In this document: piece after piece, positions 9,454 through 48,826 of the stretch
Layout of the letters: every line of letters begins with the position of its first letter
Numbering within the stretch: the first letter of the stretch is position 1
Assembly: GCA_905178155.1 (NCBI GenBank)
Contig: CAJINV010000003.1
Coordinates: 1,545,557-1,609,556, forward strand
Reading direction: 5' to 3'
Length of the DNA stretch: 64,000 nucleotides
DNA from: Amoebophrya sp. A120
Lineage: Eukaryota; Protista; Dinoflagellata
Notes under the pieces: generated by a model
Database searches by the model: none
Told to the model about the DNA's origin: nothing
The model's input: only the letters and a program-made list of their open reading frames with translations
Made by a program: the position numbers and the translations under genes

Positions 9454-12400
9454 ATGCAGGAACACAGAAAAATGCAGCATCCAATCGAAGAAGAAGCTTT
9501 CCACGACTTGGAAACTGAGAGTGACGTCGGGCAGGACAAGCAGAAACACATTTCCGTGCAGCGGTCCGCGCGGGGCCCCCCGCGGCCGCCAATTCCAACT
9601 AGTCCCGCTTTTGTTGAGATGCAGATGCAACCGGTTCCGCACACGCTTTCATCGGGGAAAATGCGGTATCTCGGCCTCCCTGAACAGAAGATGTCAAGGC
9701 CAGCGGCTGTCGTGGAGGAGGCAATAATGGTAAAACCGATCGCCGCGCCACAGCCGCAACCCCGGTTGAGTGCAGTGTCGCCCGGAACTGCACAAGAGCA
9801 GGAGGTGGTGGATGAGGAGGAGATGCATTCTCTAGCCTATCTTCCCGCCGCGGAGCACGTGCCCTACCAGAATCTTTTCGGGAAGGTGCTTTTCGGAAAA
9901 GGGGGCTACTACGGGCCCGCGAACGCAGCAAACGTGCCCCTGGAACGGCGTCTGAAAATCTACATCGCGCTACGCATCTACTACATTCGGCACATCGATT
10001 GTAAGGAAGGGACCTACGAGCTGTCCTTCCGCCAGCTGAGAACCATCCGCAAGCCGCCGGGGATGGAACACGTCCTGCCCCTCCTCCGGGAGCGTGCGAA
10101 ACTGATAGGGGCACGAATGAGCAACGTGCCTCGAAATTCCCATAGTGCATCAACTCAGCAAGTGCCAAGCCCCGCACGAGCCACGACCGAGCGGACCAGC
10201 AATTCGAACGCTGCTTCACCACCTTCCCGCGACCACCACCACCTGGAAGGTGCGGTCGTGGAGAAACTGCAGATCAGGCCTGCTCTGGCATCGTCACCAA
10301 CTGCCGTGAGTAAAGTTGGAGTGGTACTATCAGAACCGAACTTGGTGATCGGAGGGTGCTCCCCGCAACCCAGCCCCGCCGCGCGCTCACACGCTGCGCA
10401 AATGGAAGCGGAAGAGTGGATGCTGCCCACGCGCTACTATCTTTCGCCTTACGCACTGAGGAATGTGCTGCCGTGCGATCTGAAACTGTTGGACCAAGAA
10501 TTTTTGTCAGTTCTACAACCTGTAGCAGAGTACCTTTGACACAAAAATCCATGCGTGAACATAGACGTTGTCGTTGTACTCTGAGCGGACTAAAGAGAGA
10601 CGACCACATGTATGCTTGTGGACCTGCTAAAGAGTGAGCACTCTGCACATGATAATGTCAACTGAAGAATTCTTGTTTTTGTGCATCTCGATGAATATTA
10701 CAAAAATTCTGCTTCCGTCAACCATGATCGTTCCACGACACCTTTTTCCTTTGAATGCAGCGGGGAGCAGCGAGAGTTTTCCGCGGAGATTCCCCTGCCG
10801 CAGGAGCTCGTGTTTTCGAACCGCTTGGACGAGGGCGCGGTCACGTATCCACAAAAAAAGAACCAACCCCATCTTCCGATTTGTCATGCAAAACATGCAT
10901 AAAATCCAGTATTTGTCATGTAAAAAATGGATGGGGATTGATTGTTGTTTCGTTTTGGATATCACGGAAGACGAACCCTTCGTGCACCTCGAGACGGGCG
11001 ACGTGCACCACTTTGTGTACGGCCGCGTGACGCTCGAGCACCAGTACGACATGCGGCAGTTCCCCTTTGACGGCCACAAGCTGCCTGTATGAAATGCAAA
11101 AATGTCTGGGTCTGGAAGATTCTGAGACTTGTCAACATGCATGTTTTGCATGACCCAGGACGACTATAATGCACGCCCTAGCATCACAGATTTTCAGAGG
11201 GCTTCCTGATGCCTACTCCGCATGACAAGCGCTCTCCTCGCGTAGCACAAACTACACTCCTCTTGCTGGTCATGCAATACAGAGCTTCTTAGATTCCGAA
11301 GTTAGCATCACAAGTTCCAACCTTCCAGACCCAGACATTTTTGCATTTGATAGCCTGCGCAGTTGAGCAACTGCTTCTCCGGGGACCAAAGTTTGATGGA
11401 TGTGGTGGTCTACGCGGTGGACTTTGACTATGGATGTGTCAGGATCAAAATCGACAAAATCGAAAAACTTGTGATGCATAAAATGTAGAGCACTGGAGGC
11501 CTGTATTGGGGAGCAGGCATATGAGGCCGAATGTAAGCCTGTGTAGGGGTATGCAATCATGTGCTGCCAGAGTAGCATGACAGGAGGAGTCTTCTTTCCC
11601 CAATCAGCATGATAGACTGGATTTTGGTGCTCCCGAAATTTGTCATGCGCCACTTGAAAGCTGAGGCTTCAACTGACATCGATTTTGTGCATCACAAATT
11701 TTTTGATTTTGGCAATTTCGCTTCTGACACTCCCATATTGACCGCCGCTGTTGCCACGACCCGGAGTGGGACGTGTGCGTGCCGGAGGTGGACCGCAAAG
11801 GGCCCGCGGAAACGGTGATCTACCTGCCGGTGCAGCGCTACCACTTCTACTACACCCTGAACTTCGTCGTCTTCATGTTCTTCCTCAACCTGATCGGGCT
11901 CACCGGGTTCGCGGTGGTATCCCACGAAAAAAGTGTTACAGTTACACATGTGTTGTCAATTCAGCAACACAAATTTTCTCTGCATGAGAGAGAAAACTTG
12001 CAATGCAGAGATCATAAGGGAAAACACGTATGAAATGAGGCTCCTAAGCATTTTGTGCATGACAGAGCTTGTCTCTGTTGCTTGCTCTGCAACACAATGT
12101 GTAACTGTAACAGTTTTTTCTTTGCATAGGTGGCCACCGACGACGTGGCGGACCGGATCGCGATCTCCGCCACGGTATGCATTGCAAATATGTCAGTCTG
12201 GGTCTGGAAGATTGCGAGACTTGTCATGCTGGTGTCTTCGGATTCTATAAAAAATTTGTATTGCATGAGCAGCAAGAGAAGTAGATTTTGTGCTCCGCGG
12301 AGATGGCATTTCTCATGCGGAATAGGGATGAAGAAGCGCTCTAAAAATCTGTGATGCTAGGCCATGCAATACAGGCAATATGGATCATGCAAAATGTGCA

Positions 12401-13023
12401 TGACAGTGACAGATCTTGTTGCATTTCTCCAGACCCAAACATATTTGCAGTTGATACACGGTGGCGCTGGCCGCGATTGCCTACAAGCTGTTCTGCTCCG
12501 ACGTTTTACCGAAGATCAACTACAACACCGCCCTGGACTGGTACATTCTGCTGTCCTTCCTCTGGATCTTTCTCCTGAACAGCTACTTCGCGACGGCGAG
12601 CTCGCACTTCCTGTTCAACTTCGGCGGCGACAGCGCGGCATCGGAGGCGGAGGTGCGAGCGTTCACGAAGGAGGAGGAGCGGGTAGCCTGTGGGTCGCTC
12701 ACCTGCCTCGCCATCGGCATCTTCGCCGGGTGGCCGTTATTTCGGTACTTTGTCGTAAAACGCGACTTATCCAGTGCAAAAGTCTCGTTACTCGTACTCT
12801 ACTAATTGCGTTTATGCATTACAAATCTCTTTACTAAGGCAAATCCGCATTACAAATTGTAATGCTAAGTGAATTTGTAATGCAAGTTAGACTAGTGCGA
12901 TTGCGATACTTTTGCAATGCATATGACTGGGCAGTGGTGGATCCCAACGCCACGGAAGATCCGTACATCCTCTACCTATTCTGCGAAAACGTGTTTTTCT
13001 TGAAGAACATGCTGCGGATGTAG
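9454..13023 (+). CDS. Cys-less pentameric ligand-gated ion channel subunit; 1 probable GT-AG intron (~10506-10760) and 6 introner elements
   Basis: Reconstructed protein contains YDMRQFPFD, PEW, QRYHFYYTLN, M2 DRIAISATVAL, LPKINYNTALDWY and four hydrophobic helices; stop TAG at 13021-13023. Confidence 0.88.
10846..10961. mobile_element. Introner/MITE, 116 bp, direct repeat TCACG
   Basis: tcacg|tatcca...tggata|tcacg; removal gives EGAVT-EDEPF in frame. Confidence 0.88.
11088..11352. mobile_element. Introner/MITE family A, 265 bp, direct repeat GCCTG
   Basis: 31-bp TIR tat(g/c)aaatgcaaaaatgtctgggtctggaag with one mismatch; removal gives FDGHKLPAQLSN. Confidence 0.95.
11429..11737. mobile_element. 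Introner/MITE, 309 bp, direct repeat TTGAC, ~50-bp imperfect TIR
   Basis: ttgac|tatggatgtgtcagg...ctgacactcccata|ttgac; removal gives VDFD-RRCCHDPEW. Confidence 0.92.
11918..12128. mobile_element. Introner/MITE family B, 211 bp, direct repeat GGTGG
   Basis: TIR core tgttacagttacaca / tgtgtaactgtaaca; removal gives GFAVATDDVADR. Confidence 0.95.
12176..12456. mobile_element. Introner/MITE family A in reverse orientation, 281 bp, direct repeat CACGG
   Basis: gtctgggtctgga TIR core; interior resembles the reverse complement of 11088-11352; removal gives ISATVALAAIAY. Confidence 0.93.
12768..12923. mobile_element. Introner/MITE, 156 bp, direct repeat CGACT/TGACT
   Basis: tatccagtgcaaaagtctcg ... 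cgatacttttgcaatgcata; removal gives VKRDWAVV and extends the frame to 13023. Confidence 0.85.
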
Positions 13024-13875
13024 GAACGAGATCCGCAGGAGTTGTTGGATGAGTGACCAGGGATGTAGTTGTGGCCACACGAAGACCACAAGATGAAACT
13101 TGTAAGATGATCTTGTAGAACTACCGTCACCAGCGGTAACTCGAGATGACTGATAGGAGAAGTGCACCATCCATGAGCATGACCAACAGTGCCATGAGCA
13201 TGACCACATTTCGACACTTCTTGAATAAATTAATACCGTTCAAAATGATAGTACTCGTGTCTCGTGTGCCCAGATAGAAAATGTTCCTTCTGTTTTAGTA
13301 CGGAGTACGACTACGTCTCGCTGATTGTTGTTGATGAGTCCACAAGCTAGGCACAAGACTGCCCGTGATCAGAATGATCTTTTTGATCATCATATACCTG
13401 CTTCTTGGTAGTTGCATCAAACGGAATATCGAGAAAACGAGAACGGAGATCAGAATTTAGCTTGAGAGGAATGTGCCTTTTCTTCGTGTGCCCTGTCAGA
13501 AACGGTACATCATATTTAGGATCCTCAGACGAGAAGGAGCTCTGTATAGACAAGTGCCGATGTTCAGGATCTGCTTACCACGACGTACGGGAGTAGGAGC
13601 AGTGCGTCAAGTACAAAAGTGAGCATCTGGATCTCGCATGTTTTTTTACCGTCATGGAAATGCGACGGGCCATTCATGCTTGCATTGAACTTGAAGTACT
13701 AGTAACTTACAACCTTCAACAAACCAGGACTGTATAGGGAGAAGCATTCGACGTCTTAATAGCGTTTCAACAGACTGCTCTTTGAATAAGTACTGATTTT
13801 CTAGACGTAGACCTAAAGGCTCACTGTGCCTTCTTGTTTGATTGAGACCTGTGGTCATCTCCAACCTACCCCACA

Positions 13876-14442
13876 ATGGCTCTCACGCTGGACCGGTCGC
13901 GGTTGCAGGAGATCGAGCGTCTCGCGAACGAAGTGCTCATGGAGCAGGAGGAGCTTCGGGAGCGGATACGACGCGCCGATGGAATACGGCAAGGATTAAA
14001 CGCCTTGACGACGACGGCACACAGCAACGTTTCCAAACTGGACCGCAGCTCCAAGGTGCGGGAGGCAAACGTGTGGCTTTCCACGGGGCTGAGCGACGGC
14101 GACCACTTTGTACGCCTGTCCAAGAAGAGTGCGCGGGAGAAACTGGAGAAGGAGCGCGTGCGCACGCAGACGGAGGAAAAGGAGAAACGGGCAGCGGTGA
14201 AGAAAGCCCTGAAAGAGTTGCACAACAAACACCCGAGCAGCGCGGAAATCGCTCCGGGCGTCCTAGACTTGCTCATTCAACAGGAAGCGGAAGAGAAAAA
14301 GGCCGCGGCGGAAAAAAAGGACCACAGCAGCAGTGCGTCGAAGTCGGCGCAAGGTGTGGTGCGCCGCGACCGCTTGGATTACTCGCAGTGGAACGCCATA
14401 ACGACCTCTGACAGCGAAGATGATGACGATAGCGACATGTAG
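13876..14442 (+). CDS. PDRG1-like prefoldin-beta protein with a C-terminal DYSxW-acidic motif
   Basis: Coiled coil, beta-hairpin (VWLSTG...FVRLS), coiled coil; EIERLANEVL...RQGLNAL resembles PDRG1. Confidence 0.65.
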   Translation: MALTLDRSRLQEIERLANEVLMEQEELRERIRRADGIRQGLNALTTTAHSNVSKLDRSSKVREANVWLSTGLSDGDHFVRLSKKSAREKLEKERVRTQTEEKEKRAAVKKALKELHNKHPSSAEIAPGVLDLLIQQEAEEKKAAAEKKDHSSSASKSAQGVVRRDRLDYSQWNAITTSDSEDDDDSDM

Positions 14443-15220
14443 TGGATACCAGTAGAGCAAACATATGAATTTCAACGTGAAGCAGGTGAACAAACTACGC
14501 GACACAAGTGCTCCAACTACTCATTCCTTCAAGAACCTTGATTTTGAACCATTGGCGTGTATTACTACAAAGCGAAAGCAGGCATAATCTACCTTTCGTC
14601 TGACACAGGCAAAAAGCTGTTTTTTTTGCTTCGACTTGTTGCCAGTGGTGGTACCGGCGAGTGTCCCAACGAAAAAATGAGCCAGCAGTGTGCGGTCGTA
14701 TGAGAACGAGCTGAGACTGGGTCTGCTCGGAGCTGTGCCGGATCTAAATTTCGGTCGTGAGCTCAAGAAGAAAGACGGGAGATCAACAGATAATCGCAGA
14801 TCAGAAAATTCTTGTCAACAAACCAAGTACGAAATAAAGCCAGAGAAGAAATACAAAAACCGTCACGAAGATCACGCGCTCTAAATGGAGAAAACGGTGA
14901 AGTCAAATCGCTCCTGGTCTCGTATTAACTCACAAAGTATCCTCTTCCACTTTAGTTTATTGATGTTTTTCATCGTCTCTATCTCTCCCAGTTCGTACGT
15001 GAGAAAGTAATAACTCTGTACGTAAGTAATAAGGTTGGGCTGTTTATATTCAATTGTCCTTGCGTATTTCTTTCTTTTTGCTCTGCACTTGTTGTTTCAG
15101 TTTCGCCAAAAGACATCAAAATCTGCTTTGCTGAATTGTCCTATTGGGTAAGTTTCGTGGCAGTTCCCAAATCATGACTAGATTTGAGCTGCTGCTCGGT
15201 CTGTTCTCCACTTGGCGATC

Positions 15221-18200
15221 ATGACGAAAGTTGAATTAGAAGGTCACTTCCACCGGGTGGAGGTGCCGAATGCTGTGGGGAAAAATGCTTCTGCTCCTGC
15301 AGAGTTCGCAACAAGGAGCAGCAGCAGCTCTGCGGCCGCTGCTGATTTTCCTCCCGTCAGTATTCGGGATTTGGTTATCTTGGAAGCGGGTACTATCGGG
15401 GAACAAAGGCAGCAGCTGAAGGCCGATGGAAGACCGCGCCCCGAGTCGCAAGCGATAATACACTGCCAGCTTTACGGTCGTATCGTAGAAATTGCTGCGT
15501 CAAAGAAACATGTGTCCTTTGTGTTTGAAGATCTGTGCGGCGACACTATTGCGGTGAATATCAGCAGTCCACCAGCGGGAGCCCGGAAAACGGAAGACGG
15601 TCCTGCGGGTAGTGCTAGCGCCGGACCGCATGCGCGCGAAGAACAAGGTTATTTTGAGAGTACTAAGACGAAAAACAAGAAGGAAAGGCAGTATAATTCC
15701 GCAAGTGCGAAGTTCCTTGCCGCTGGCCGCGGCTTGCGGATCCTGAAGCCTAAGATCGTGGACCTGCGCGACGTGACCTGCACCGCACGGCAAGCTCTGC
15801 AGACGCTTTCAGCACGAGACACAAGTTATTTCTGTGCCAAAACTACAAGTAACGGCTCGTCGCTGACCCCTACTTCGTCCTCTAGCAGAGCGACCACGAC
15901 TTCTTGTGTAGTAGGCTGCGTCGATTTTACTCCTGTACTTGAAGTCGACGACCCTGATGGAACGGTTTTTGCTTGGAATTTCCCAGACACGCATGAGGAG
16001 TGGCTTCAATTGGCATTACACTTTTCGAAGACTGGCGATGTAGAAGCAGAAAAATTTTTGGACGACGGTGAGGACCACGCCCAAGAAATAAACACCCGAC
16101 AGGACCACAACTCCAGAAGGGCAATATGCTTTTCGCAAACACAAAACCTCCGACATCTCCAACTTGCCCTCACCTGCTACCACCGGGCACTGGAGTCGGT
16201 AAAACTCCGTCGCGAGTATGCCAACCTGCTTACGAACTACGGTTTGTGTCGCTACAAGCTAAACCATTATCCGGACGCGATCCGCGCGTGCTTGCAGGCT
16301 GCCTTCCTGAACAGCGGAGACTACCGGCCCTGGCGCATTCTGGCGGACGCTTTGCGTGCGCTAAACGCCCCCGTCCCCGACGCGATTGTGTATGCGATTG
16401 GCGACGAGCTTGTCAGAACCGTTGTTGCCGTCCGAAAGCAACATGAGAGCCTCGGTGGAACCGTGTTGAACTCGGCGCTGAGTAATTCATTTCTTCGACG
16501 GGATGAAATAACTGATAGCACGGACGAGGTCTGTAGTACAGGTCGGCAATGTAGTGACACGGATCATGTGAGAGTGAGGAAGCAGTTGTTCAAGATGCAG
16601 GACGAAACAGCGAGAAAAAAGTGGGACGGTAACACCAACACATTGGAGTTTTACAAAACTTTCGCACACGACGTTACAGAAGAGGGCAGAAAAGCGATTG
16701 GAGCTCTCGGATATGCGGCAGTTGTTCTTCTGTCGGGCGTTATGTGCTTCAAACCTGACGAGCACGACAGTTCTACAGCGGGAGCAAAGATGAAAGATGG
16801 CCCCAAGAACTACGACCGCTTCTTGGGTCCACCTGCGAGCACGAGCGAGGAAGTAGATGAGCATCTTCACACCAAGACAGTTGAGAAGGGCCGCTCCCAC
16901 TTCCGCCGCCAGGAATTCGCCGAAGCTATGCCATTGTTCCAGCGGGCGCTTTTTGGGACGCAGTACTACGAACAAACTAGACGACAGTGTGCAGAAGCCC
17001 TTTCCGCCGAGAGCTGCCTCCTGCAGCAGCTTGTGCAACAAAAACGGGCGAAAAATAGTAAAAGCAGCAGGAGCCTTGTGCAGACGTCTGCTCGCAACTT
17101 AACACCAGAAGACGAGCAAAAAAGTTCGCAATTGCGGGAACTTGAGAGCCGGGACGAGTCCTGGGAACAAGACTGCGGTGTGCTGGATGGCACGGCTGTG
17201 CGTCTCGCGCGTCTCGGAGTCTTGGAAAGTTGCGTGGCCACGTTGCTCGATCCAAATTGCGGGAGAGGTGCAGCTTTCCTCCTGCAGCACGCGTGTTTCA
17301 AGGCGCTGTGGCAGCGCGAGAGTAGAGATCTGCAACTATTACCAGAAGCTGAAGAAAGGCCTTGCCGTGAAAGAGAAGCGCCATCGGCGTCGTGGGAGAG
17401 GTTGTTTGCGAAAATGTTCAAGAAAGACGTCGAAGGTGATCTGCCTGGGCAGAAAATAGCGCTCCGCGCCGGACACGAGAACAATGGTGCAATGGAAATA
17501 GCAAGCACGAAGCACGAGGCGTCGAGCCCGTGCGGCCAGCTTGTCAACTACTTTGTTAGGCAGTTCGGGAGCGAACGAAATGGCCAGGCGGAGTCGGAAA
17601 GCAGCACTGCTTCAAAAGTGGATTTTCACGACGAGCAGGGCTCCTCCGAGGCCGTTCTTACGCAAGAAACCAGGGAAAATGTGCTAGCACATCTGGATTC
17701 CTTGCGCCCTGCAGGATCTTCTACTTCGGAAAAGCACGAGGGACGAGTGCAGTTGTGTGGTGCGCCGTTCGATCTAACAACTCTAAAAACTCTCTGCAAC
17801 ATCGCCACCCCTGCATCAACGCAACTAGCAGAAAGCGACGGTGGCACCAGCAGGCAACAGCTTGCATTGAAGGTGGGAGAGGACGGGCGCCGTCCTGATG
17901 CTGCTGAAGATGATGTTGTTGAAGATTCTTTGAAACTTGAACTAGAGAAGAAAGCCTCGTCGTTCGCTGTTGATGTGCAGGGGGCACAAGTAGAGCAGCA
18001 GGCCGAGGAAGTAGCCACTCCGTCCACGATATCGGTCGGGACGCCTAGTACAGCAGATGAGACAAAAACGGATGTCCAAGAAGAAGACCAGCCAAGTGCC
18101 CGACTCCCGACGCCCCAGCGGCCAGGTCGGCGGGCCGAAAAGAGGCAGAGGCTCCTGGAGAAACAAGAACGGGAAAAGGTAGCAGCAGCAAGGAAGCAGC

Positions 18201-21013
18201 TGTATGAGAGTAGTGTGAACATTCTGAAGGTGGATAAACGACATCTGGAAGTAATAACGCAGTGGGCTACAAAGGCGAACGAGGCCTTTTTCTTATCTAC
18301 CGCTGCGTTTGACGCTCATCGCGAGAGCTCACAGGAGGAGCGAGTAGCTCGGCTGAAAAAGAATGGCAAAGGCCTGGAACCTGCTCTGTACAAAAAGATG
18401 GCGCGTTTGGTTGACTTTCTCCCAACGTGGGGCGAATGCCTGGCCCACCGGGACTGCGTGCTGCGGTTTTCGCGTGACCGCTTCCTCGATAAAAAAACAC
18501 CAAGTGCCTCATCATCCACAACGTCAACACAGCCCGGTGCGGCAGGATCAGGATCACCAAAAACGAACTGGTTTGCGGGAATCGAAGACGATTTTGCGGA
18601 ATCAGTATTGCATGCAAGCAGACTCTTAGCCGAAACAAACCCCATTCTGGAGGCGATACAGCTGGCGGTGTCCGCTCACCCGAACAGAGAATACGAAAAG
18701 TCCCTGCCCATGTATAGTTTCGACCGAACCGGTCGCTGGGCGGGCGCGGATGCGCAAACCGAGGAATTTCTTCGGAATGTTGACTTGAAAAACAAGCTGG
18801 GTCCTTATTTCGTGGACGACAAGATAGTAAACAAAGATGGAGATAAAACGATGACGCCTGCTGCTGGAGCTGACCCTGTAGTTGACGCTCAACCTAAAAA
18901 GCAAGCGAGAATGTTTCGTACCGGGGCGCATGTGCTAGACCACCTGCGCAAGGAAGAGAATCTGGGCGCATTCAAGGTAGCCTTGACACCTGACGCAACA
19001 AGCAAAGTTACCATTCTTCCTGGGGAGTTCCGCGCGCAACCTTGGGATACTCGTGGGGTTCCGCCCGTGGTGCGTGTCACGCTAGGGAAATCGATCCATA
19101 TGCAAGTCGGAATGCTTGACCTTCGCGAATTATTGAACTTGGAGATAGTTGAGGACCACAACAAGAAGAACAGCGAGCAGATGATAAAAAACGCGAGCGA
19201 AGGTGGCAAGAAAGATAAGGAAGAGCAGCTCAAGCCCGGAGCGTCGCAAGTCGCAATCATCGGCCTCAGTAAGAGCCACAGATCCTACGCGAAGTGTTGC
19301 GTGCTTGTGCACATGTTGCGCGACCCAGCCGTGCCGGTACTTGCCATTCTCGAGGTTTGGTATTCCTCGGTGTGGGCGCCCGCCACGCTGACAGCTTTTC
19401 GAAACGCCTGCAAGCAGCTCGTGGAAGACCCGGGCACGTTCGGGATGACGGCCTCCTGTAAGGCAGCTCTGAGTGACTTCCTGCCATTTTGGCTCAACCA
19501 GGAACCGCTCCCGCTCGCGGAAGCGTACCGGAGTTGGATGCGAAACCACGGGGAACTGCCGGACGAAAGACCGGCGGACGACGGTCATGGCCAGCCTTTG
19601 AAATGGACGTGCTTCCAGGCGTGTTGCAACCTGCGGGAGCCGCACGACAGCGAGGCCCTAGTGGATTACTGCTTCACCGGAAACCTAATACTGCAGCCGC
19701 CTCCGTGTTCTAGTACTTCGTCCCAGATATTAAACGAGGGTGACAGCACCAGCACACTCCCAGAGTACCAGCCCGATGAAGAAATCAAAAGTTTGCATCG
19801 CGGTGGGAACAACAACAACAAAAAGTCCAAAAAGCGGGGCGGATGCAAAGAAAAGGAAAGAGAAATGGAGGACAAAGTGGAGGCGTTCTTGAACGAGCGC
19901 GGGGACGAAAAGAACAATCCCCGGTTCAACAACAAGTCTTTTGTGGGCAACGTCACCATCTGGAACACTCCGGAGGCCGACATTCAGCTGCTGCAGAATA
20001 GGCTCCACGCGTTGGCAGCGATGTCGATGGCGGAGTATCTGGAAGAAAGGAAGGTCCGATACAGTCTGGCTGAGCAGAAGGAAATTTTCGGGTTCCAGTT
20101 CGAACCAAAGACCATCGTCGACTTGTTCATCAGTCGCACGGCGAGAAAGCTTTGGAATTTTCGCAAGCTTTTGCGTGCGGACAAGATCCTCTTTAGTTTC
20201 ATGCAAATGCCTCCGCTGTCCCAGCCGAAGAGCCAACGGAATTTCTACGAAGCGATCGGGGAAGTGAAGCCCACCAGCATTTCGTGGAACGACGAAATTG
20301 ACCGCTTTACCTGTGAAGATTTCCACGAGATCGCCAGACGTTGCTGCGCCGCAGACAAGCTGCCGCCGGGACATTCTTCCGTGACGAAGCACTACGGCTA
20401 CTCGTTTCGCTGGGTGTACGAGACGCTGGGAACGCAGCTTACAGATTTTGGTCATCCCGACGGGGGCGCAGAGAACGATGAGGGAAGTTGGCGGGTGCAA
20501 GCCATTCTCGACGAGCTCCTGGGGCGCGAGGGGACGGAAACACGTCAAAAAATGGAACAGGGCTACAGCCAGGAACTCGAAGAATGGGTTTCCTTGCCCG
20601 TCCGCGCACCACTCTTGCCGCTGAGCGGGCATTTTTTGCAAAGTTTCGCTTGCCACACGTGGGTCAAGCATTTTGGCGACAAGGCGGAAGCGGGTACGGC
20701 CGAGGAGGGTGAAAAAGCCGTGGTGAAAGGAGAAGGTCATGATGAAGCGAAAAGCGCGGGAGATGAAACCCGACAAGAGATTCAGTGCGACCCGAACGTG
20801 ACTCCAGGATCTTCCGCAGAAGCAGTTTCAGCTCCTGCAGCGTCTGTACAGCAGGTGGAACGGAAACCACACAGATTGTTCAGGTGCGACGCTAAAACGG
20901 ATGGTATGCGACTTTTCTCGTTTCTTGAAGAACGTAACACTCAGCAGCTGCCGCTGGAATGGACCTATGCGAAGTTGGATTCACATGCGGTCGAAAGCGC
21001 TCAGAGTCTGTAG
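15221..21013 (+). CDS. Large TPR-containing hypothetical protein (~1930 aa)
   Basis: TPR-like segments (ALTCYHRAL, LLTNYGLCRYKLNHYPDAIRACLQA, GRSHFRRQEFAEAMPLFQRAL); intronless ORF. Confidence 0.8.
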   Translation: MTKVELEGHFHRVEVPNAVGKNASAPAEFATRSSSSSAAAADFPPVSIRDLVILEAGTIGEQRQQLKADGRPRPESQAIIHCQLYGRIVEIAASKKHVSFVFEDLCGDTIAVNISSPPAGARKTEDGPAGSASAGPHAREEQGYFESTKTKNKKERQYNSASAKFLAAGRGLRILKPKIVDLRDVTCTARQALQTLSARDTSYFCAKTTSNGSSLTPTSSSSRATTTSCVVGCVDFTPVLEVDDPDGTVFAWNFPDTHEEWLQLALHFSKTGDVEAEKFLDDGEDHAQEINTRQDHNSRRAICFSQTQNLRHLQLALTCYHRALESVKLRREYANLLTNYGLCRYKLNHYPDAIRACLQAAFLNSGDYRPWRILADALRALNAPVPDAIVYAIGDELVRTVVAVRKQHESLGGTVLNSALSNSFLRRDEITDSTDEVCSTGRQCSDTDHVRVRKQLFKMQDETARKKWDGNTNTLEFYKTFAHDVTEEGRKAIGALGYAAVVLLSGVMCFKPDEHDSSTAGAKMKDGPKNYDRFLGPPASTSEEVDEHLHTKTVEKGRSHFRRQEFAEAMPLFQRALFGTQYYEQTRRQCAEALSAESCLLQQLVQQKRAKNSKSSRSLVQTSARNLTPEDEQKSSQLRELESRDESWEQDCGVLDGTAVRLARLGVLESCVATLLDPNCGRGAAFLLQHACFKALWQRESRDLQLLPEAEERPCREREAPSASWERLFAKMFKKDVEGDLPGQKIALRAGHENNGAMEIASTKHEASSPCGQLVNYFVRQFGSERNGQAESESSTASKVDFHDEQGSSEAVLTQETRENVLAHLDSLRPAGSSTSEKHEGRVQLCGAPFDLTTLKTLCNIATPASTQLAESDGGTSRQQLALKVGEDGRRPDAAEDDVVEDSLKLELEKKASSFAVDVQGAQVEQQAEEVATPSTISVGTPSTADETKTDVQEEDQPSARLPTPQRPGRRAEKRQRLLEKQEREKVAAARKQLYESSVNILKVDKRHLEVITQWATKANEAFFLSTAAFDAHRESSQEERVARLKKNGKGLEPALYKKMARLVDFLPTWGECLAHRDCVLRFSRDRFLDKKTPSASSSTTSTQPGAAGSGSPKTNWFAGIEDDFAESVLHASRLLAETNPILEAIQLAVSAHPNREYEKSLPMYSFDRTGRWAGADAQTEEFLRNVDLKNKLGPYFVDDKIVNKDGDKTMTPAAGADPVVDAQPKKQARMFRTGAHVLDHLRKEENLGAFKVALTPDATSKVTILPGEFRAQPWDTRGVPPVVRVTLGKSIHMQVGMLDLRELLNLEIVEDHNKKNSEQMIKNASEGGKKDKEEQLKPGASQVAIIGLSKSHRSYAKCCVLVHMLRDPAVPVLAILEVWYSSVWAPATLTAFRNACKQLVEDPGTFGMTASCKAALSDFLPFWLNQEPLPLAEAYRSWMRNHGELPDERPADDGHGQPLKWTCFQACCNLREPHDSEALVDYCFTGNLILQPPPCSSTSSQILNEGDSTSTLPEYQPDEEIKSLHRGGNNNNKKSKKRGGCKEKEREMEDKVEAFLNERGDEKNNPRFNNKSFVGNVTIWNTPEADIQLLQNRLHALAAMSMAEYLEERKVRYSLAEQKEIFGFQFEPKTIVDLFISRTARKLWNFRKLLRADKILFSFMQMPPLSQPKSQRNFYEAIGEVKPTSISWNDEIDRFTCEDFHEIARRCCAADKLPPGHSSVTKHYGYSFRWVYETLGTQLTDFGHPDGGAENDEGSWRVQAILDELLGREGTETRQKMEQGYSQELEEWVSLPVRAPLLPLSGHFLQSFACHTWVKHFGDKAEAGTAEEGEKAVVKGEGHDEAKSAGDETRQEIQCDPNVTPGSSAEAVSAPAASVQQVERKPHRLFRCDAKTDGMRLFSFLEERNTQQLPLEWTYAKLDSHAVESAQSL

Positions 21014-31404: not shown

Positions 31405-31923
31405 AGAAAACACTCAGGTTTCATCGTTTCTCTTGTCCGAGTCCTTTCGGCGTCGTGGCTCGATTCGTAATCGCATCGCCTAATTCTCGTGGTGAATATT
31501 CATGGACGGGTCTTTGCCATCCAACTTCGAAGGCTAGGTGTAGTTGCTTGATATATATGATCGTGAAACAGCGTACCCATCGATGCGGTACTACATCGAA
31601 GCAAGAACGTCAATCGTGGTTCGTGGTCAGCATTTGACGCTCCCGGCAAAAATGCTTTTGAATAACCGTCGTCTCAGTGGGGTCTGTCTCGGTTTAGCAT
31701 GCAAACAAGGAAGATAAAGTACCATTTTCAGATTCACGACCGGTCTAGTGTATTTTTTTTTGAATGTTACAACTCCACGGGGACACCATCATCGACAACT
31801 CAACGGAGACGTCGAACTGTTCTATCGACGGTCCTATTCACTTTCACAAAAGTAGATCGTACGCATACAGTGTCGTAGCGTGCGCCCCGCGACGTCATCC
31901 TCGTACCTTGTTGTTTTCGGACG

Positions 31924-38922: not shown

Positions 38923-41900
38923 ATGGCAGACCGCTCGCGATCCCGTAAGCGCGACCGGAGTCGGGGGCGGCGCGGAGACCGCAGCCGCAGGCGGGACCGA
39001 GACCGCGACAACAAAGACAAAAAAGACCGGGATCGCGAAAGACGGGGGGACGACAAAGACAAGAAGTCTTCGACGCCAGGAAATGCCGCTGCCGTGCCCG
39101 AGAATGCTCAGTCAACAGGTGTCCTCACCCAGTCAACCACTGCCGCCACGGCAGGGGCAGCGAGCGCGTTGCCGGTTAATAATTCCTCTGACAACAAGGC
39201 GGGTGGTGCAGCAGCCGCATCAGCCACAGGTACGAAGGCTGATGCTAGCTCATCTCCCGCAGATGAGGACCAGCACCTCGCGAACGGGAAGGCGTCTGCG
39301 TCCAAAAGCAGCAACGAGGAAGACGCCAAAAAGGACCACGACAAGAAGGACCGGAGTCGGGAACGAAAAGACCGGAAGCGCAGCCGGGATCGAGACCGCA
39401 AGCGCAGTCGCGACCGGGAGCGTGAACGCCGACGCGACAAGGACCGGGATCGGGAGCGACAGACGAAGAAGCGAAAAACCGAGGACGACGACAAGAAGGA
39501 CCACAAGCCGACAACGTCGTCCACCCTACCCTCCAGCGTGCGACCCAAAACGAAGAACGAGGAGCTGATGGCGAAGCTGCGGGCGAAGCAGGCGGCCGCG
39601 GCCCAAAAAGAGACCCCGCTCAGCAGTCCGGGTACGCCCCTCGAGGGGGGCGCAGGAGTGGCAAGCAGCGCAGCGGAGCAGGAGGACGACGACCTACTTC
39701 AGTTCGTGAACGAGATGCTGGAGCAAGAAAAAAAGCAGGAACGGGAAACGAAGATCGTGGAACTGCCCTCCTCCAGCACGGCCGACGCCGCGAAAGTGAT
39801 CACGATGGAGGACATTTTGGCAGGCGACTTCTCCAAGTACGACGAGCTGTACCTGAACACCACGAAGAAGAAGTCCGATGATGTTGAGCCTAAGGTAAAA
39901 ACTGATTCATCATCGCCTACTAGCCTTAAAACTTCTGGCGCCCAGGATGGCGTAGTTGTTGTACAAGAACCTCCCAAAGAACTACCTCCTGCTGGCACGA
40001 CAAGAACATCTGCGAACAATGATGAAACTTCAAAAGCACCAACGGCGGCCGCGCAGCCTTCATCTGGTGCCACGACAGACGCTGGTGGGGCCGCTCCTAT
40101 TCCGGACACGAATAAGACTGCACCTGGTGCCAGTGCGGAATCTGGTGATGTGCCCCAGTCTACTTCCGAACCCCCGGTAGGAAACCCAGCAGCAAAGGAA
40201 GCGAAAGCAGAGGGCGAAGTTGCAAACAAGCCCCCTTCATCAACAGGCGACAGCGCCGTGAGCAAAGACCTCGTCCCACTAAGTCAGAAACTCTCTGAGG
40301 CACAGAGAGCAATCGAAAAAGCCGTCTCCGGGTCCTTTGACGAAAAGGACGTTGCGGTAGCAGGTGCAGGAGCATCCTCATCAAGTAAACCCGCTGACGT
40401 TTCAGCAGAGGCCGGTAACACTAAAGCCAAAGAAACACCAGAAGCAGTTACCGGTGCGGTGAGCAAGGCTTCCTCGCCACTTGTCGCTGCCACTACGAAA
40501 CCTCCACCCCCGCCTACACCAAAACCAATCGTGATCGACCCAGAAATCAAGATTGTAGTCCAAAAAACCGTCGCCGAAGACCGCAAGGAGGAGAAGGAGG
40601 CCAAAGACTTTATGGCCGAGATGGCGAAGTTTCTGGAGAAGAAAAATGTGAGCGCAGCGTCGGTGGACCCGAATTTGCATACCATCCAGGAAGGAAAGCG
40701 CGGGGCGTACATCGAACAGGACGAGGAACTCCAGGAGGACGAGGACGAGGTGGCTGCAGCAGTCAAAGAGGCCGAGCGGCAGTACAACGAGGAACAGGAG
40801 GAGAAACGCAAACTGATAGAGCAGCAGATGCGCATGCCTCTCGCGTACCAGGAGTCCGCCATCGTGGGCCCGCTGCCGCCCACGGCGGAGGAGCTGGCCG
40901 AGATGAAGGAGAAAAAGGAGAAAAAGTTCAACCACGGGGGACAGGCGCAAGTGGTGAACCCCAACAAAATCAACCCCACGGACATCATCGGCAAGTCTTA
41001 CGAAGAGCTGCAGAAAATCTTCACCGCGCGGAAGGAGCTCCCCCGCGTGGACCACAACAAGATCGAGTACCTGAAGTTCGAAAAGGACTTGTACCGCCCC
41101 GTGGCCGAGGTGGTTGCACTGCAGCCACACGAGATCGAGAATCTGCGCAAGGTGCACAACGACATAAAACTCGCGGGCAAGCCGCCGCACCCAGCCCCGG
41201 TGACTACCTTTTACCAGTGCGGCTTTTCCCAGGAGGTACTACAGTTTTTGGAGCGACAAGACATCGAAATGCCGTTTCCCATCCAAATGCAGGCACTGCC
41301 CTGTCTGCTATCCGGCCGGGACGTCATCGCCATCGCCCCTACCGGGAGCGGAAAAACGCTGGCATACATGCTCCCGATGCTCAAGCACATTCAGGCGCAG
41401 CCACCGATCAAATTCGGTGTCGAAGGCCCCATCGGCCTCATTCTCGCCCCCACAAGAGAACTCGCACACCAGATCGTGATTCAGGTACTCAATTACGTAC
41501 TGCTTGTTACATTTTAAGTCCCCAACACCATTCCAAGGTCTTCTATATTCCACGATTGGGATTGATTCCACGGGTTTTACAATAAGATGAAGATGCGTCT
41601 ATCTACAACTCGTAACGACCCCCAACACATGTAAATACAAAATCACAACATCAGGCGAAGAAGGTGTGCGTTCCGGTGAACGTGACCGTGATAGGTGCGA
41701 TCGGTGGTCAGCCGCTCGGCGGGCAACTGTCCGCGTTGCGGCGCGGCTGCGATTTGATCATCGGAACCCCGGGGCGCATGGTCGACGTATTTTCGCTGTC
41801 CAACGGGAACATCACGAACTTGAAGCGGGTGTCCTTCGTTGTCATCGACGAAGCGGATCGCATGTTGGATCAGGGTTTCGGGCCGCAAATTCAGGACTTT

Positions 41901-44900
41901 CTGAACAAGACCCAGCCGAAGAAGCAGCTTTGCATGTTCAGCGCGACCTTTCCGCAGCAAGTGCAGGCGATTGCGAAGAAGTATTTGAAGAAGCCGCTGC
42001 AAATCAAGATCGGCACCGAGGGCGCGGCAGTGGACCGAATCAAGCAAACGGTGGAAATCGTGATGCCGGACAAGAAACTCTTCTCTCTCCTCCGGCTGCT
42101 CGGCCAGTGGGCGCAACACGCATCTATCATCGTCTTCGTCCGCGAACGGAAGGACGCCGAGGCGTTGTTCGCCAAACTGTTGGAGTATCATTACCCCTGC
42201 CTGTTGCTGCACGGCGGTGTCAGCCAGGAAGACCGTGCGTGCGTCATTAAGGACTTTCGCCTCGGCCAAAAGGATCTCGACGCCAAGGCAAATATCCTGC
42301 TGGCGACCGGTGTTGCGGCCCGTGGCCTCGACACCGCTTGCAAATGCGTCATCAACTTTACGGTACTATGTTTTTTCACGCATTTGAAGATCTGGTTTTG
42401 GATTTTTTCCTTTTTGCTTTTCGGATCAGCTGCTTGGTCGTGGTATGCGATACCGATTGCGAAGATGTGAGCTGCACCTCCATCCCTTGCTTGTCGCACT
42501 GTGCTCGCCCAGTTCAGTCGTGTCTGAGAATAGTCTCGTGTTAAGATGATGACTCCTTGATGTACAACGAACTACTCAATATGAAATGAAAACCCCACCA
42601 GGTCCCCAACACGCGGGAGGATTACGTGCAGCAGATAGGGCGCACCGGACGAGCGGGGGCTCGGGGTTGTGCGTACACGTTTCTGGAACCCCGACAGATG
42701 GACAAGGCCCAGATGCTGATTGACGTGTTGAAGTCGTCGAATCAGGTGGTGGACGCCCGGTTGCAGGAGTTGGCGAACTCGTACCAAATGCAGGTGAACA
42801 GCGGCCAGGTAGAACAGGTGAAACAGCACTCCGGGTACGGTGGGCGCGGCTTCAACTTCTCCAAAAAGGAGAAGGGCCAGGAGCAGGCGCGCATGGCCGA
42901 GTACAAAGAGCGGGAGGGCATTGTCGACGACAACATCCGGCGGCAGAAGGAGTTCAAGGAAGGAATCGGCGCGATACACGACGACGACAAGGAACTCGAG
43001 CCGGTGGTGACAGGCCCAGAAACCGCCGCAAGTGGTACCTTTGTCTCCCCTATGGAGTGTAAAAATGTCTGGGTCTGGAAGATTCTGAGATTTGTCATGC
43101 ATGTTTTGCATGACCCAGGAGGTCTGTAATGCACGACCGCGCATCACAGATTTTGAGAGGGCTTCCTGATGCCTACTCCGCATGACAAACGCCCTCCCCG
43201 CGTAGCACAAACTAGACTCCTCTGCTGGTCATGCAATACAGATTTTTCTAGAGTCCAAAGTTAGCATCACAAGTGCCAATCTTCCAGACCCAGACACTTT
43301 TACACCTGATATCCCCCGTGCTCGGCGGGACCGCACAGACAGAAACGACGACACCAGCAGCAGCATATCAAATGTAAAAATGTCCGGGTCTGGAAGAATG
43401 TAACTTGTGATGCGCATTTCAGAACACAGAAAAATCTCTCATGCATAGGCAGCAAAAGCTGCCCAGTTTCTGTCACCAAAATGGGGGATTTGTTATGCGG
43501 ATTTGGCATTGCGGAAGCTTCTCGAAACCTGTGATGCTAGAGCTTCCATGCCAGACCTTCTGTGTCATGCAAAAATAGCATGACTCTTCCAGACCCAGAC
43601 ATTTTTACATTTGATACAGCAGGGGCTGAAACCACTCCGGCTGAGCAGTCTTCTGCAGCAGACGGCGATGAAATAAACGACGAGGAGGGAACTGCTGGGA
43701 CGACCAAGGCCAAGAAAAAGCCGTTCATCAGCAAGAAGGACCTGATTCCCTCTCCAGTGACTAATGAGGGGCCGATGGCTCTGTTCCTGAAAGCGAAGGC
43801 CGAAAAGGAAAAGGCGGCGCAGAACAAGGTGAAGCAAGACAAGGCGAAGGAAGCGACCGAGAGAGCGCAGCAGGCCTTGAAAAAAAAGATGATCGAAGAG
43901 AGGCAGGTCATCTTCACCGGCGGCATGGACGCGGACGCGAAAAAAGCCGCGAAAAACCCACCTCCGGTGTCCGTACCGAAGTCCGGCTCGCCCGTCTCCG
44001 AGTCAGCAAAAGACGACGCCGCTGCTCCGGCCGGGGGGGTGGAACAAGCCGCAAAGGCGAAGGCACCGCCCCCCGCCCCGAAGGCCGCGACGGTTGTGAA
44101 GGAGGAACTCACCGAAGAGGAGATCAAGGAGTGCGAGGAGGAGGCACAGCAGAAGGCCGAAAAGATCGTCGCGGTGCTGAAGCTCACAGACGAGGCGAAG
44201 AAGGAGAAGATGCTGAAGGAGAAGTACGACCACGCCCTCAAGATCGCGCTGGAGGCGAAGAAGAAAAAGAAGCTGAAATTCATCGCCCCCGCCGGCCAGA
44301 AGCCCAAGGGCCCGCCCCCCAAAGCCAAGCCCACCGCGATGCAGGCGGGAGGCGCCTTCTTCGTGCCCGCCGGGCAGCAGGAGCTCCAGGGTGCGGTGGC
44401 GAGCAAGGCCAAGGTGCCGATTCTTGCCGGTTGGAACACGCTGGTCGGGGCGGTGCCGGTAGCGGGCACCACCAAAATGATCGAGACCTGCAAAGACGGC
44501 ACGCTACGCATTGCAAATGGTTGAATCCGGGTCTGGAAAAATGACAAATAGAAATTTCTTATTGCAGACTCCAACTCATGAAAGTTAAAGTTGTGACACT
44601 TTTTGAGAGCAGACGTTGTGATGTGTATAGTTGTGCAAGAAGAGACACGTATTGGCATTAATACATGCAACTGAGTGGCTTCATGCACATTGGCATTTTT
44701 CCGCAACAGGAGCAGCACCATTTGCATGTGCGAGCTAAAACAAGTCGTCTAAACTAGCCAGTATGTAGTATGAGAAGCCTTGCAAGTAGAATTTTCTCAC
44801 GAAGACCTGGATCGACGATGTTTGCACTCGATAGCCGCTGATCCACTACGACTCGTTGGAGATCAACATGTACCCCGAATTTGCGCGGCGCGAGATCAGT

Positions 44901-45185
44901 CGGCGCGAGCTGAAGGAGAACATCGAGGAGATGACCGGGTGCAAGCTGCTGGTGAAGGGGCGGTATTTCCCGCCGGACGAGCCCAACCCGGGCAACGAGC
45001 GAAGGTTGTACGTGGAAATTTCCGGGCCGACCACCTCCGCGGTGGCAACCGGGAAAAAAACGGTGCGGGACACCATGGAGGAGAACGCCAAGCGCACGCT
45101 CAACTTGGGCCACCACGCCCACATGATTCTGGGCAACATGGGCCGCCGGTACGATCCCAGAACCGGCACTTTCACCGACAAATAA
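38923..45185 (+). CDS. PRP5: Spliceosomal DEAD-box helicase Prp5/DDX46; GT-AG introns 41485-41654 and 42363-42601 plus 3 introners
   Basis: RD/RS-rich N-terminus; APTGSGKT, PTRELA, TPGR, DEAD, SAT, ARGLD, GRTGRAG; GYGGRGF; C-terminal LEINMYPEFARR...KGRYFPP...LYVEISG. Confidence 0.88.
43051..43311. mobile_element. Introner/MITE family A, 261 bp, direct repeat TCCCC
   Basis: Closely similar to 11088-11352 in the same orientation; removal gives FVSPVLGG. Confidence 0.95.
43366..43616. mobile_element. Introner/MITE with A-type TIR, 251 bp, direct repeat CAGCA
   Basis: tatcaaatgtaaaaatgtc(c/t)gggtctggaag TIR; removal gives PAAAGAETT. Confidence 0.95.
44505..44833. mobile_element. Older introner, 329 bp, degenerate repeat CACGC/GCCGC
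   Basis: Decayed A-type TIR; removal of element + 5 nt gives KDGTLIHYDSLEIN in frame. Confidence 0.8.
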
Positions 45186-46625
45186 AGAGTGTGAATACGA
45201 TTTCTTTCTTCGGCCACGACAGGAGAACAGCTCTGCGAGTGTTCTTTTTATTTCTCCCACCAGCGCAAGGAAGTCGAAGTCCTGCTCGGCTACGAGTAAG
45301 TACATGCGTCTGGGTCTGATGAGGTTCTATGTTGTACTTTGCTGCCTTTGATGCAACTCGTCAAGAGTACTGCTACTGGAAGGCAACAAGTATACGTAGA
45401 CCGGGAATGATCGCGACTAACGACCACGACGACCCGAGGGAGAACTTGATGTTTCGACCACATTGAAGATGAACGAAAACCCCACAGAGCAGAAACGAAA
45501 AACGTAGTTCAGTTGGTATCACTTGTTCCTCTTTTTTCAAAGCTGGGACAGCTTTTCAAACTCTGTACGACCCCGTCTTGCCGTAAGCAGCACCTGAAAT
45601 TTTTATCGGTACTCTTTTGTACTATCCTGTCGCACAGCCCGCGGAAAAGTCAATTTGTACCAGCGTGAAAGAAACTTTATACAAAATGTACATGTTGTAG
45701 TTAGTAATAGTATGCATCAACTACACAACGAATGAGAATTGTGGTTCGCGCATACTATGGATCTCGAAGAAAAGCTGTTTCACGCTTGTGTTCGTAGTTC
45801 ACGAATAGTCCATACTCAGAATAGATTACGTACATGCAGCAGCAACAAACCGCGACAAAAACAGGCACAGCACACTACCTTTTTTTTTCCACCGAAATGA
45901 CGATCCGCCACTGCCTGATCGGTGATGTTCCCTTCTCAATGAGATAATAGTAGCAAAGTGAGCTCCAGAGTTACAGATTCTTTCTCGGTCTCAATGACGG
46001 TCAGTTGGAGCTTTTGAATCCACGCCGGATCTTTTTAACGTGTTATTGAAATTTTATGTGGATCTTTTCGTTTGCATTAGCATTTCCCTTTTTCGTTTTC
46101 TTTCGTCGTTCACGTTCTGTATGTGAAACGCCAACGAAGAACAGCGAATCCTATTTAGCTTTGCCACTGTGTGTCAGGTATCAAGCATTTAGCATCGGTT
46201 CCTCAACTAAAGACTTTTTTTATTTGGTTCTGTGACTTCGAGCACCTCCTTTACAAATCTTCATTTTTCTAAAGGTGTGGCCTTTTTCAAGATATCGACC
46301 TCGGGATTACAAGTATAACGTACGAACACGAAGGAACGAATTCTATATTTTTGTATCTATAATTTTTGGAAGCAACAGCAAAGCAATCGATGGCACTCCC
46401 GTCGTAATCATTCTTCTGGCCCTCCCAGTGAAACAAAACGAAAAAGCTCCAGCATTTCCGAAACACCAAGCAATACCTCCCGTCCCGGTCTTCAAAGGAA
46501 GACCTTCCCTTCGTCAGAAGGACATCAGCATCACGTGAAGATCAACATTTCACTGCTGCTGGTTTGGGTCTGTTCACTGCTGCTGCTGGTTTGGGTCTTT
46601 CGGGACACGAACAAGACGGACCATC

Positions 46626-48826
46626 ATGCCGGCCATGCAAGCGGGAGTCGACTATGAGAAAAAGGAGGATGCGCCGTACCAGCCCGACCTTCCAACGGTA
46701 AAAACCGAAAAGGCGTACAAAAATCTCGTTTTCCTGAACACCCCGGCCGCGCGGAACATACGGATACAATGTGAATTCCAAGAGCCCGGCTGTCGACTGC
46801 TCGAGGAGGTTCATTATAGATACCCGGTTTTTTTTCCAAATTACTTTCGAATCTCGCATCTATTCGGTCCTCTAGTTGATTGCGCATACACGTAGGGATT
46901 GTGCGCAAAATTCCTCACTTTGTTTCAAAAGTCCGGACACATCATGTTCATCGATCTAGACAACCTACTTCTCACATCACCAGGAAGTGCACAACATTGT
47001 CATGTTTTTCGGTAGCGCGCGGGCCAAATCTCGCGAGGAGTTCGAACGCGCGTTGGAAACCGCCGAGCCCGGGAGCCCGGAGCGGGATAAGCTTTTGCGG
47101 ACCGAGTTTATGGTGAAATTCTACGAGGGTATTCGCACTCTGACCGAAAAGTTTAGCGACTGGAACCACCAACGCGTCCACGATGGAAAGGGAAGATACG
47201 TCGTCGGTACCGGGGGCGGGCCGGGCATGATGCAAGCCGCAAACGAGGGCGCGTACCGGGCCGAGGCACCCAGCGTTGGATTCGGAATCTCTCTCCCCTT
47301 CGAAACAGGACTCAATCCGTACAGATCTATTTCCCTTCACTTGTTGATTTGAAAATTGACGTTAATGCTGTTTCTTGTACTATGCTATCACCGTCCTTGC
47401 TGCAACTGCAAATGATAATTCGTCAAAATGCATTATCGTCATCAAGATCAAATTCAAAGTGAACCTCGGGAACAAGTCCCTATAACAAGGCCGCTAGTGC
47501 GGTACCACCATATGCAAAACATGTGCAGCACAACAAGATGAACAGAGAAACACCGAACAACAGGTACGTATCCCCCCCGCTAGCGTTCGAGTTTCACTAT
47601 TTCTTTACGCGTAAGTTTTGGATGGCGTACAAGATCTGCGGGTTGGTGTGTGCCCCCGGAGGGTTCGGCACCCTCGACGAGTTGTTTGAGATCCTGACCT
47701 ATCAACTGCAAATATGTCTGGGTCTGGAAGATTGCAAGATTTGTCATGCTAGTCTGGCATGACTCTTGCTCTTCACTCTGTATTGCGTGGCCACGAACAG
47801 CCTGTCTCGCCTGTCATGCAAAAACGCAGTTTCTCATTCGGAATGCGTAGCGCAGAAGCACGAAAAAACTTGCCATGCTTGGCTGCGCATTACAGTTCAC
47901 TCGTTGTTCACTGACTTGCATCACAAGTTTCCAGACCCAGACATATTTGCATTTGATATGACCCTGAAGCAAACCGGGCGGATCAAAAGACCCATTATCA
48001 GAAGAAAGAAGTGTTACAGTTACACATTGTGTTGCAAGCCCAGCATGAGAGACAACCTCTGTGATGCCAGAAATGCTTCCGAGCTTCATTTCATACGTGT
48101 TTTCCCTTACGATCTGTGCATTGCAAGTTTTCCCTCTCATGCAGAGAAAATTTGTGTTGCTGAAGTTACATCAAATGTGTAACTGTAACACTTTTTTCTT
48201 GTGATACCCATCCCGATCATTTTGTTCGGAAAATCGTACTGGGAGGGCATACTCAACTTCCAGGCGATGTGCGATCATGGGATGATTTCCCAGGACGACG
48301 TCAATTCGCTCTTCCTCACCGACGACGCCGATGAAGCTCTCAAGTTCCTCTGTCAGAGCTTGGAAGACGTACTTTTACAGAAAATGTTTTACCTGGCACG
48401 ATACTGGATGATTGATTTGTTCTTCAAATGTCTGGCCGGCATCGCTCTTCAAGTGGACCAAACCACATGTTGGTGTGTGTAAAAATGCACTACCTATGCC
48501 AAATACGTAACTCTATCTCTAACAGAATCTAAATCCTAAAATAATCGCAGGTCGAAGCCGATTTTGAGAGTCAGGGATCCCCGTTTCTGGCGCCCATGCG
48601 GGACAGCCAGGGCGGTTACGTGCACGACGCCATGGGCCGCATGCGCCGGCAGAGCGGGGAACAGGCTCGGAGTCCCGAACTCTCTCCGCAGACGGACACC
48701 AATAGTCCCGGAGGTGGCGGAAGCCAGCCCGAGTTCCAGATGGTGCAAGGCCAGCAGGGCAGCGGGGGTCAGGGCGCAGAGAAGAAGAAACCCAGCGGCA
48801 ACAAACCCACCGAGAGTGTGATATAA
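46626..48826 (+). CDS. LOG-family (so-called lysine decarboxylase-like) nucleotide phosphoribohydrolase; GT-AG introns 46809-46983, 47319-47563, 48369-48550 plus 2 introners
   Basis: [61 protein letters not shown]. Confidence 0.92.
47700..47958. mobile_element. Introner/MITE with A-type TIR, 259 bp, direct repeat TGACC
   Basis: tgacc|tatcaactgcaaatatgtctgggtctggaa...catatttgcatttgata|tgacc. Confidence 0.95.
47996..48206. mobile_element. Introner/MITE family B in reverse orientation, 211 bp, direct repeat CCCAT
   Basis: Same length as 11918-12128 and its interior is the reverse complement; removal gives [11 protein letters not shown]. Confidence 0.95.

Follow-up and report, generated by a model that had tools for sequence, protein, structure and literature searches.

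In the dinoflagellate Amoebophrya sp. A120, a 64,000-nt stretch of contig CAJINV010000003.1 (positions 1,545,557 to 1,609,556 of the forward strand; hereafter the window) carries short intron-forming repeats, or introners, that are removed from messenger RNA together with one copy of their target-site duplication (TSD), whichever way round they are inserted. Either-orientation function alone is expected of any element with terminal inverted repeats (TIRs), and the original prediction had concluded from it that directional spliceosomal signals are unnecessary. This conclusion fails, because the TIR puts the same sequence on both strands and because the decay of the element ends, unequal between the 5' and 3' terminal trinucleotides, follows the direction of the host gene. 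The TIR supplies the same first and last ~30 nt of the transcript in either orientation, and therefore directional signals can lie inside it; this is the very case that the original prediction had named as refuting it. Random insertion orientation is thus a natural experiment that separates the end signals from the interior of the element.

The window elements are short and comparatively AT-rich, start with TAT, end with ATA, have TIRs of ~30 nt and are flanked by 5-nt direct repeats (Table 1); families 6 and 8 have another core after TAT. The two family B copies at 11918-12128 and 47996-48206, predicted to be reverse complements of equal length, are both 211 nt long with perfect 5-nt target duplications, and they align globally at 183/211 identical positions (87%) when one is reverse-complemented, compared with 137/214 (64%) in the forward alignment. 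After trimming of the TIRs, the interior local score is 178 in reverse and 26 forward, with a shuffle maximum of 19. For family A, the alignments agree with the proposed forward copies at 11088 and 43051 (234/265 identical, 88%) and reverse copies at 12176 (210/281 against 11088, 75%) and 52594. The last is an old copy, whose reverse orientation has a weaker interior score (41 vs 18; shuffle maximum 21) and did not change sign in a spectral orientation of 108 copies; its end had to be amended to 52891. Both family A orientations lie inside one gene, as had been noted for 11088 and 12176, and likewise in a helicase gene through 43051 and a further reverse copy at 43366, absent from the original prediction. 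The four host genes are on the + strand, as the original prediction stated for the two hosts of family B, with spliced open reading frames (ORFs) of 580, 729, 401 and 335 codons after excision of each element plus 5 nt. An initial orientation of family A by spanning tree proved unreliable, refinement changing 22 of 108 copies, and its mixed-locus count (6/12) was not used. A further family A-type copy, at 56040-56308, has a 3' end ATG and a mismatched right TSD.

Removal was read from the assembled contigs of four runs (X1-X4), which represent at most two samples from one study and whose RNA nature is a guess. Forward and reverse copies are both skipped, which bears out removal in the two orientations: the elements at 43051, 43366, 44505, 47700 and 47996 are missing in all four runs and those at 52594 and 50059 in three, each time by exactly the element plus 5 nt. 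Four GT..AG introns are skipped by the same contigs. In host gene 1, one contig (X2 record 11, depth 6.9, from one of the four runs) spans 10121 to 13057 and has gaps of 80, 71 and 42 nt that match short exons in length; from these lengths and the open frame, we infer that 11088, 11918 and 12176 are removed as well. The exons of this gene are without cover in run X1, and the raw-read run X10 has 4 reads on the stretch. An empty site would equally lack the element and one TSD copy, and with runs whose RNA nature is guessed, contigs from insertion-free alleles or another strain could mimic removal of elements that are never spliced. Such an origin is extremely unlikely. The contigs that lack the elements also lack GT..AG introns; the exons agree with them over kilobases, with 0 other letters, so that an insertion-free strain is improbable; and the elements are 10-30% diverged from their relatives. 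Moreover, an intergenic bin is almost uncovered in X1-X4, and the DNA-like run X7 runs continuously across the element-exon borders.

The orientation ratio was obtained from a larger sample, for which a search with the family A TIR yielded, among the matches listed, at least 149 loci (256 kb) on JACKZZ01 contigs, which together with the window underlie all figures for 273 copies (271 unique elements and two window copies added by hand). Host strand was called from the exon coding signal in 208 copies, and the 65 uncalled ones were dropped; under leave-one-gene-out evaluation the caller was right in 283 of 294 cases, and 43 of 44 multi-element loci were consistent. Loci L039, L089 and L098, considered as orthologous, were rejected as unrelated sites bearing the same families. 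The two orientations stood at 36:39 in family A (interval of the fraction, 0.36-0.60) and at 19:15, 6:11, 8:6, 6:12, 7:2 and 5:2 in the other families, none differing significantly from 50:50, so the claim that either orientation of one family is a working intron withstood the per-family check. Because either orientation works without detectable bias, the asymmetric interior is devoid of an orientation-specific essential signal.

The 5-nt TSD was perfect in 237 of 287 detections (detection required at least 3/5 matches) and showed no clear base preference, nor was there a clear purine bias after the junction. Among 165 perfect-TSD copies, a GT..AG register was possible in 10 and a G[TCA]..AG register in 22. 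Being short, non-coding, bounded by a TIR and a fixed-length TSD, and inserted either way, the elements fit transposable elements of the miniature inverted-repeat type (MITEs) or non-autonomous TIR DNA transposons, and non-autonomous DNA transposons they probably are. No transposase family was found with Pfam among the 13 long ORFs of the window, and the family A TIR had no match in a viral contig collection.

The directional component emerged from the terminal bases. At the 5' end of the transcript, T1, A2 and T3 were changed in 0, 0 and 8 of the 208 strand-called copies, whereas at the 3' end the changes numbered 5 at the last A (position -1), 1 at the T (-2) and 0 at the inner A (-3) (5' vs 3' contrast, Fisher p=0.0008, 14 events). 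Detection blind to the terminal bases gave 0, 0, 4 and 4, 0, 0, respectively (171 called of 222; p=0.029), and family-free detection, in which several hits were evidently mis-bounded, gave the same trend (p=0.005). Decay at TIR positions 4-30 was equal on the two sides (233/3900 at 5' vs 265/3873 at 3', p=0.13), which argues against a strand mutation bias. Each of the eight changes at T3 disrupts its pairing with the inner A, which was itself never changed, even to the G that would keep a wobble pair; therefore, pairing alone cannot explain the asymmetry.

These figures bear on the symmetric, structure-based recognition first proposed; on this view any terminal stem would suffice, and the end asymmetry would have to be an accident of small numbers or strand calling. 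In its favour, a stem is predicted in both orientations: the two family B copies fold well beyond shuffles (z -7.0 and -8.6), at least 10 end-to-end pairs are expected in 155 of 156 copies, without a significant effect of orientation, and own ends match better than swapped ends in 4/5 families, though subfamily structure yields the same result. What the proposal does not accommodate is the directional terminal decay (p=0.0008), to which two further observations are added. From TIR position 4 upwards there is no excess of wobble-making over pair-breaking transitions (123 vs 110, p=0.43), and the copy at 52594 folds no better than shuffles (z -1.5), with outer ends that barely pair, yet it is removed in three of four runs. 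Purely symmetric recognition is accordingly quite improbable, while the predicted terminal stem keeps a putative role in splicing.

The exact cut is hidden because the TSD copies are identical. RNA joints at three mismatched TSDs fit registers 1-5, 2-6 and 2-4, and together confine the cut to registers 2-4, that is, 2-4 nt into the duplication; the intron at 10449-10760 has a unique length-inferred joint, in register 4. The cut is therefore likely to fall after the fourth TSD base, giving an intron N-T-A-Y...A(-7) with +2 T and +3 A as its invariant 5' bases and the fixed inner A at -7. The canonical donor is GTAC in 4/5 of those examined in the window, and the nine predominant non-canonical motifs of A120, which all begin N-T (Farhat Table S4; PMC7789003), account for 23% of 205 copies if register 4 is assumed, and no other register brings them above 9%. 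AG was not significantly enriched at the register-4 acceptor (21/202, p=0.10), and a codon-model test of the kept TSD copy was uninformative. The family B copy at 11918 allows GT..AG by chance and the reversed copy at 47996 allows no GT/GC..AG; as a group, the elements depart from the U2-type pattern of a GT/GC donor with an AG acceptor and agree with it, in register 4, at +2 T and +3 A alone.

Canonical introns of the window (41486-41655, 42363-42601, 46809-46983, 47319-47563 and 48369-48550) have A/C-rich 3' ends and no polypyrimidine tract. In the larger sample, several predicted GT..AG introns (L077 1190-1423, L079 1889-2169 and in other loci) start with GTAT or GTAC and two retain introner-like TIRs, which suggests that old introners convert to canonical introns.

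We lean towards a relaxed spliceosome, itself putative, that would recognise two signals carried by the TIR, a donor without G and an invariant A close to a 3' end of no particular sequence, while the stem would join the two ends; this is probable, though by no means secure. The inverted repeat would hand the transcript the same end signals in either insertion orientation, and the machinery would still read them directionally. The donor N-T-A-Y would correspond to the host canonical G-T-A-Y without its G, the fixed A would lie at -7 from a 3' end that has no set sequence, and a terminal stem of ~25 bp would bring the ends together and could replace U1 and AG recognition. The weakest step is the identification of the inner A(-7) as the branch nucleotide, a tentative proposal that we would not yet call probable. 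In group II introns the branch A is bulged and lies 7-8 nt from the 3' end. A bolder version, possible and at present rather doubtful, invokes a U1-less spliceosome with a palindromic code, in which TAT...ATA would act as an N-U-A-Y donor on one arm and as a branch A on the other, the 3' site being found 7 nt away by counting from the stem, as in domain VI of group II introns. If true, any element with this end would become an intron at whatever site and whichever way round it inserts, and the tens of thousands of non-canonical introns would be accounted for.

Directional ends could also be produced by a non-spliceosomal nuclease/ligase that binds the terminal stem, reads few bases per arm and cuts at fixed unequal distances, leaving no lariat, similarly to what has been proposed for euglenids. 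Such an activity would accord with the lack of a requirement for GT or AG, with the absence of yUnAy enrichment at the 3' end, with the analogous motif-plus-spacer code in Euglena inverted repeats (PMC12501133), and with the failure to detect U1 in A25 or A120 (PMC7789003). It is hard to reconcile with the coincidence of the invariant 5' bases with host donor positions +2 U and +3 A in register 4, with the hybrid look of the 10449 intron, which has an N-T-A-C start and a CAG end, and with the reported presence in A120 of nearly all spliceosomal proteins and of U2, U4 and U6 (PMC7789003). We regard it as improbable.

Several points weigh against the relaxed-spliceosome reading. The asymmetry amounts to 14 changed copies in a contrast chosen after the table had been seen, the three overlapping detections do not count as independent, and an uncalled copy (L015 995-1261) would violate the 5' rule should it share its neighbours' strand. 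Host strand in the public loci, like splicing there, is predicted, and the contigs, all from a single study, give the presence of the spliced form and not its efficiency by orientation. The U of yUnAy is found in 105 of 208 copies and does not favour the 3' end (35 vs 37), nor is there a peak of A at -7 among 33 canonical introns, themselves roughly predicted (10/33). Register 4 was placed by one length-inferred joint. Placement by HISAT2 within repeats may favour donor-like registers. The published A120 motifs derive from HISAT2 placement in ambiguous repeats (PMC7789003) and may not be independent support. Taken as it is, the result singles out three invariant bases and a single cut register; how A25 and A120 remove their more than 60% of non-GT-AG introns without a detectable U1, a question left open by PMC7789003, thereby becomes directly testable. 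A fixed register would also correct gene models.

The features of the window are collected in Table 1. The product of host gene 1 is likely a Cys-loop ligand-gated ion channel, judging from its sequence matches. DDX46/Prp5 acts in branch-site proofreading, and the gene for the DDX46/Prp5-like helicase (38923-45185) itself bears three introners; its SAT motif is intact, and no DPLD motif was seen in the N-terminal ORF. The region 13000-41000 contains long uninterrupted ORFs (1941, 1640, 874 and 809 codons), mostly without a clear Pfam family, and no detected introners, compared with seven introns in 2.5 kb of gene 1. Long ORFs with RNA or Pfam support are all on the + strand, like the unidirectional gene blocks of Amoebophrya. 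Short segments unrelated to introners are duplicated (850-932 / 9487-9571 and 6774-6820 / 9357-9403), a run of short imperfect repeats lies upstream of gene 1 (8620-8940), and an Rfam scan of the window gave no match.

Table 1. Host genes and introners of the window, with the observations that define them (joints and skips refer to the contigs of runs X1-X4).
Feature	Position	Strand	Observations
Host gene 1, likely Cys-loop ligand-gated ion channel, seven introns	9601..13023	+	580-codon spliced ORF; weak GABA-A receptor matches (best E 9e-4)
Host gene 2, DDX46/Prp5-like DEAD-box helicase, C-terminal KH domain	38923..45185	+	Spliced ORF; Pfam DEAD, KH_12
Host gene 3, LOG/lysine-decarboxylase-family protein	46626..48826	+	Pfam Lysine_decarbox; profile positions 37-72 and 84-129 flank mini-exon
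Host gene 4, syntaxin	52487..53761	+	Spliced ORF; Pfam Syntaxin/SNARE
Old hybrid intron TTAC...CAG	10449..10760	+	Unambiguous joint one base 5' of TAC (register 4), deduced from 80-nt gap in X2 record 11 and open frame
Short TAT...ATA introner, 5-nt TSD	10846..10961		X2 record 11
Family A introner, forward	11088..11352	+	71-nt gap in X2 record 11 indicates removal
Family 6 introner	11429..11737		X2 record 11
Family B introner	11918..12128	+ (orientation 1)	TAT...ATA, 5-nt TSD; chance GT..AG register; 42-nt gap, equal to next exon, indicates removal (X2 record 11)
Family A introner, reverse	12176..12456	-	Gene shared with 11088; X2 record 11 indicates removal
Family 3 introner	12768..12923		TSD mismatch at position 1, left letter kept in mRNA; X2 record 11 skips 161 nt; registers 1-5
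Family A introner, forward	43051..43311	+	Joint 43045>43312 skips 266 nt, 4/4 runs
Family A introner, reverse	43366..43616	-	Gene shared with 43051; joint 43360>43617 skips 256 nt, 4/4 runs
Old introner, starts TAC	44505..44833		TSD mismatch at 1-2, left letters kept in mRNA; joint 44501>44836, 4/4 runs; registers 2-6
Family 1 introner: family A TIR, different interior	47700..47958		Joint skips 264 nt, 4/4 runs
Family B introner	47996..48206	- in + strand gene	No GT/GC..AG register; joint 47989>48206 skips 216 nt, 4/4 runs
Old introner	50059..50354		TSD mismatch at 2 and 5; mRNA has 2 from left and 5 from right copy; joint 50055>50357, 3/4 runs; registers 2-4
Old family A introner, reverse, weak terminal stem	52594..52891	-	Joint 52588>52892 skips 303 nt, 3/4 runs

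By their anatomy, the window elements match the published TAT...ATA introners of Amoebophrya A120: they have a TIR with a TAT start, a direct repeat across the exon/intron borders, and belong to repeated, mostly non-GT-AG families removed from mRNA. The two also share an inverted repeat of TAT, seven variable bases and an A run, direct repeats of 3-5 nt, a length near 240 nt, no fixed splice dinucleotides, a proposed hairpin and unidirectional gene blocks (PMC7789003). The published account calls the splice sites variable relative to the hairpin, and in the text consulted it gives neither a directional constraint nor a branch candidate. In the text and supplement of PMC7789003, the word orientation is used only for genes or methods, although supplementary figures S14 and S19-S25 may bear on it. 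In the text of the mostly open-access literature searched, we found no orientation count, directional constraint, branch point or lariats for Amoebophrya introners. Of related studies, Gozashti 2025 (PMC12130899) required same-orientation similarity and Gozashti 2022 (PMC9860276) permitted both orientations; the accessible parts of PMC12005148, PMC11453091 and PMC8469720 added nothing further on orientation.

Similar systems have been described elsewhere. The introner-like elements of Polarella glacialis and Aureococcus anophagefferens are also TIR/TSD DNA elements that form introns either way, drawing their splice sites from the TSD or from the end of the element (bioRxiv 10.1101/2020.10.14.339549). 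They differ in using G[T/C/A] donors and AG acceptors and in the orientation bias of classes 6, 8 and 10, whereas the Amoebophrya elements require no G or AG, have a sequence-free TSD and show no detected bias. The MITE-derived introns of Fritillaria borealis share the non-GT-AG ends, TIR and TSD, and are presumably excised by a U2 spliceosome in modified form; in contrast to the window elements, whose terminal dinucleotides vary with the target site, they prefer AG-AC and AG-AT ends, and U1 is conserved (PMC11282704, PMC13326754). In Giardia, the fused branch point-3' splice site, with the fixed motif CT[A/G]ACACACAG, places the branch signal ~8 nt from the 3' end, so short spacing can work; however, AG and the full branch consensus are kept there (PMC10711314), and only A-Y is fixed in the window elements. 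The nonconventional introns of Euglena are likewise non-GT-AG, with inverted repeats, a short motif whose distances to the two cuts are fixed but unequal, and a suggested MITE origin, but their motif is N3CDG...CHG N5-6 plus an exon purine, both arms were needed in knock-ins, and the excised intron is reported to be circular (PMC12501133). The euglenid motif is absent from the window elements, which end in TAT...ATA and whose motif would be N-TA...AT-N5 with different positions fixed on each arm; a terminal stem, in turn, is predicted by folding, weakly for 52594. Thus, the elements were already known, as were either-orientation introns with conventional ends in other organisms, whereas the proposed terminal code and the orientation data are apparently new for Amoebophrya in the literature searched.

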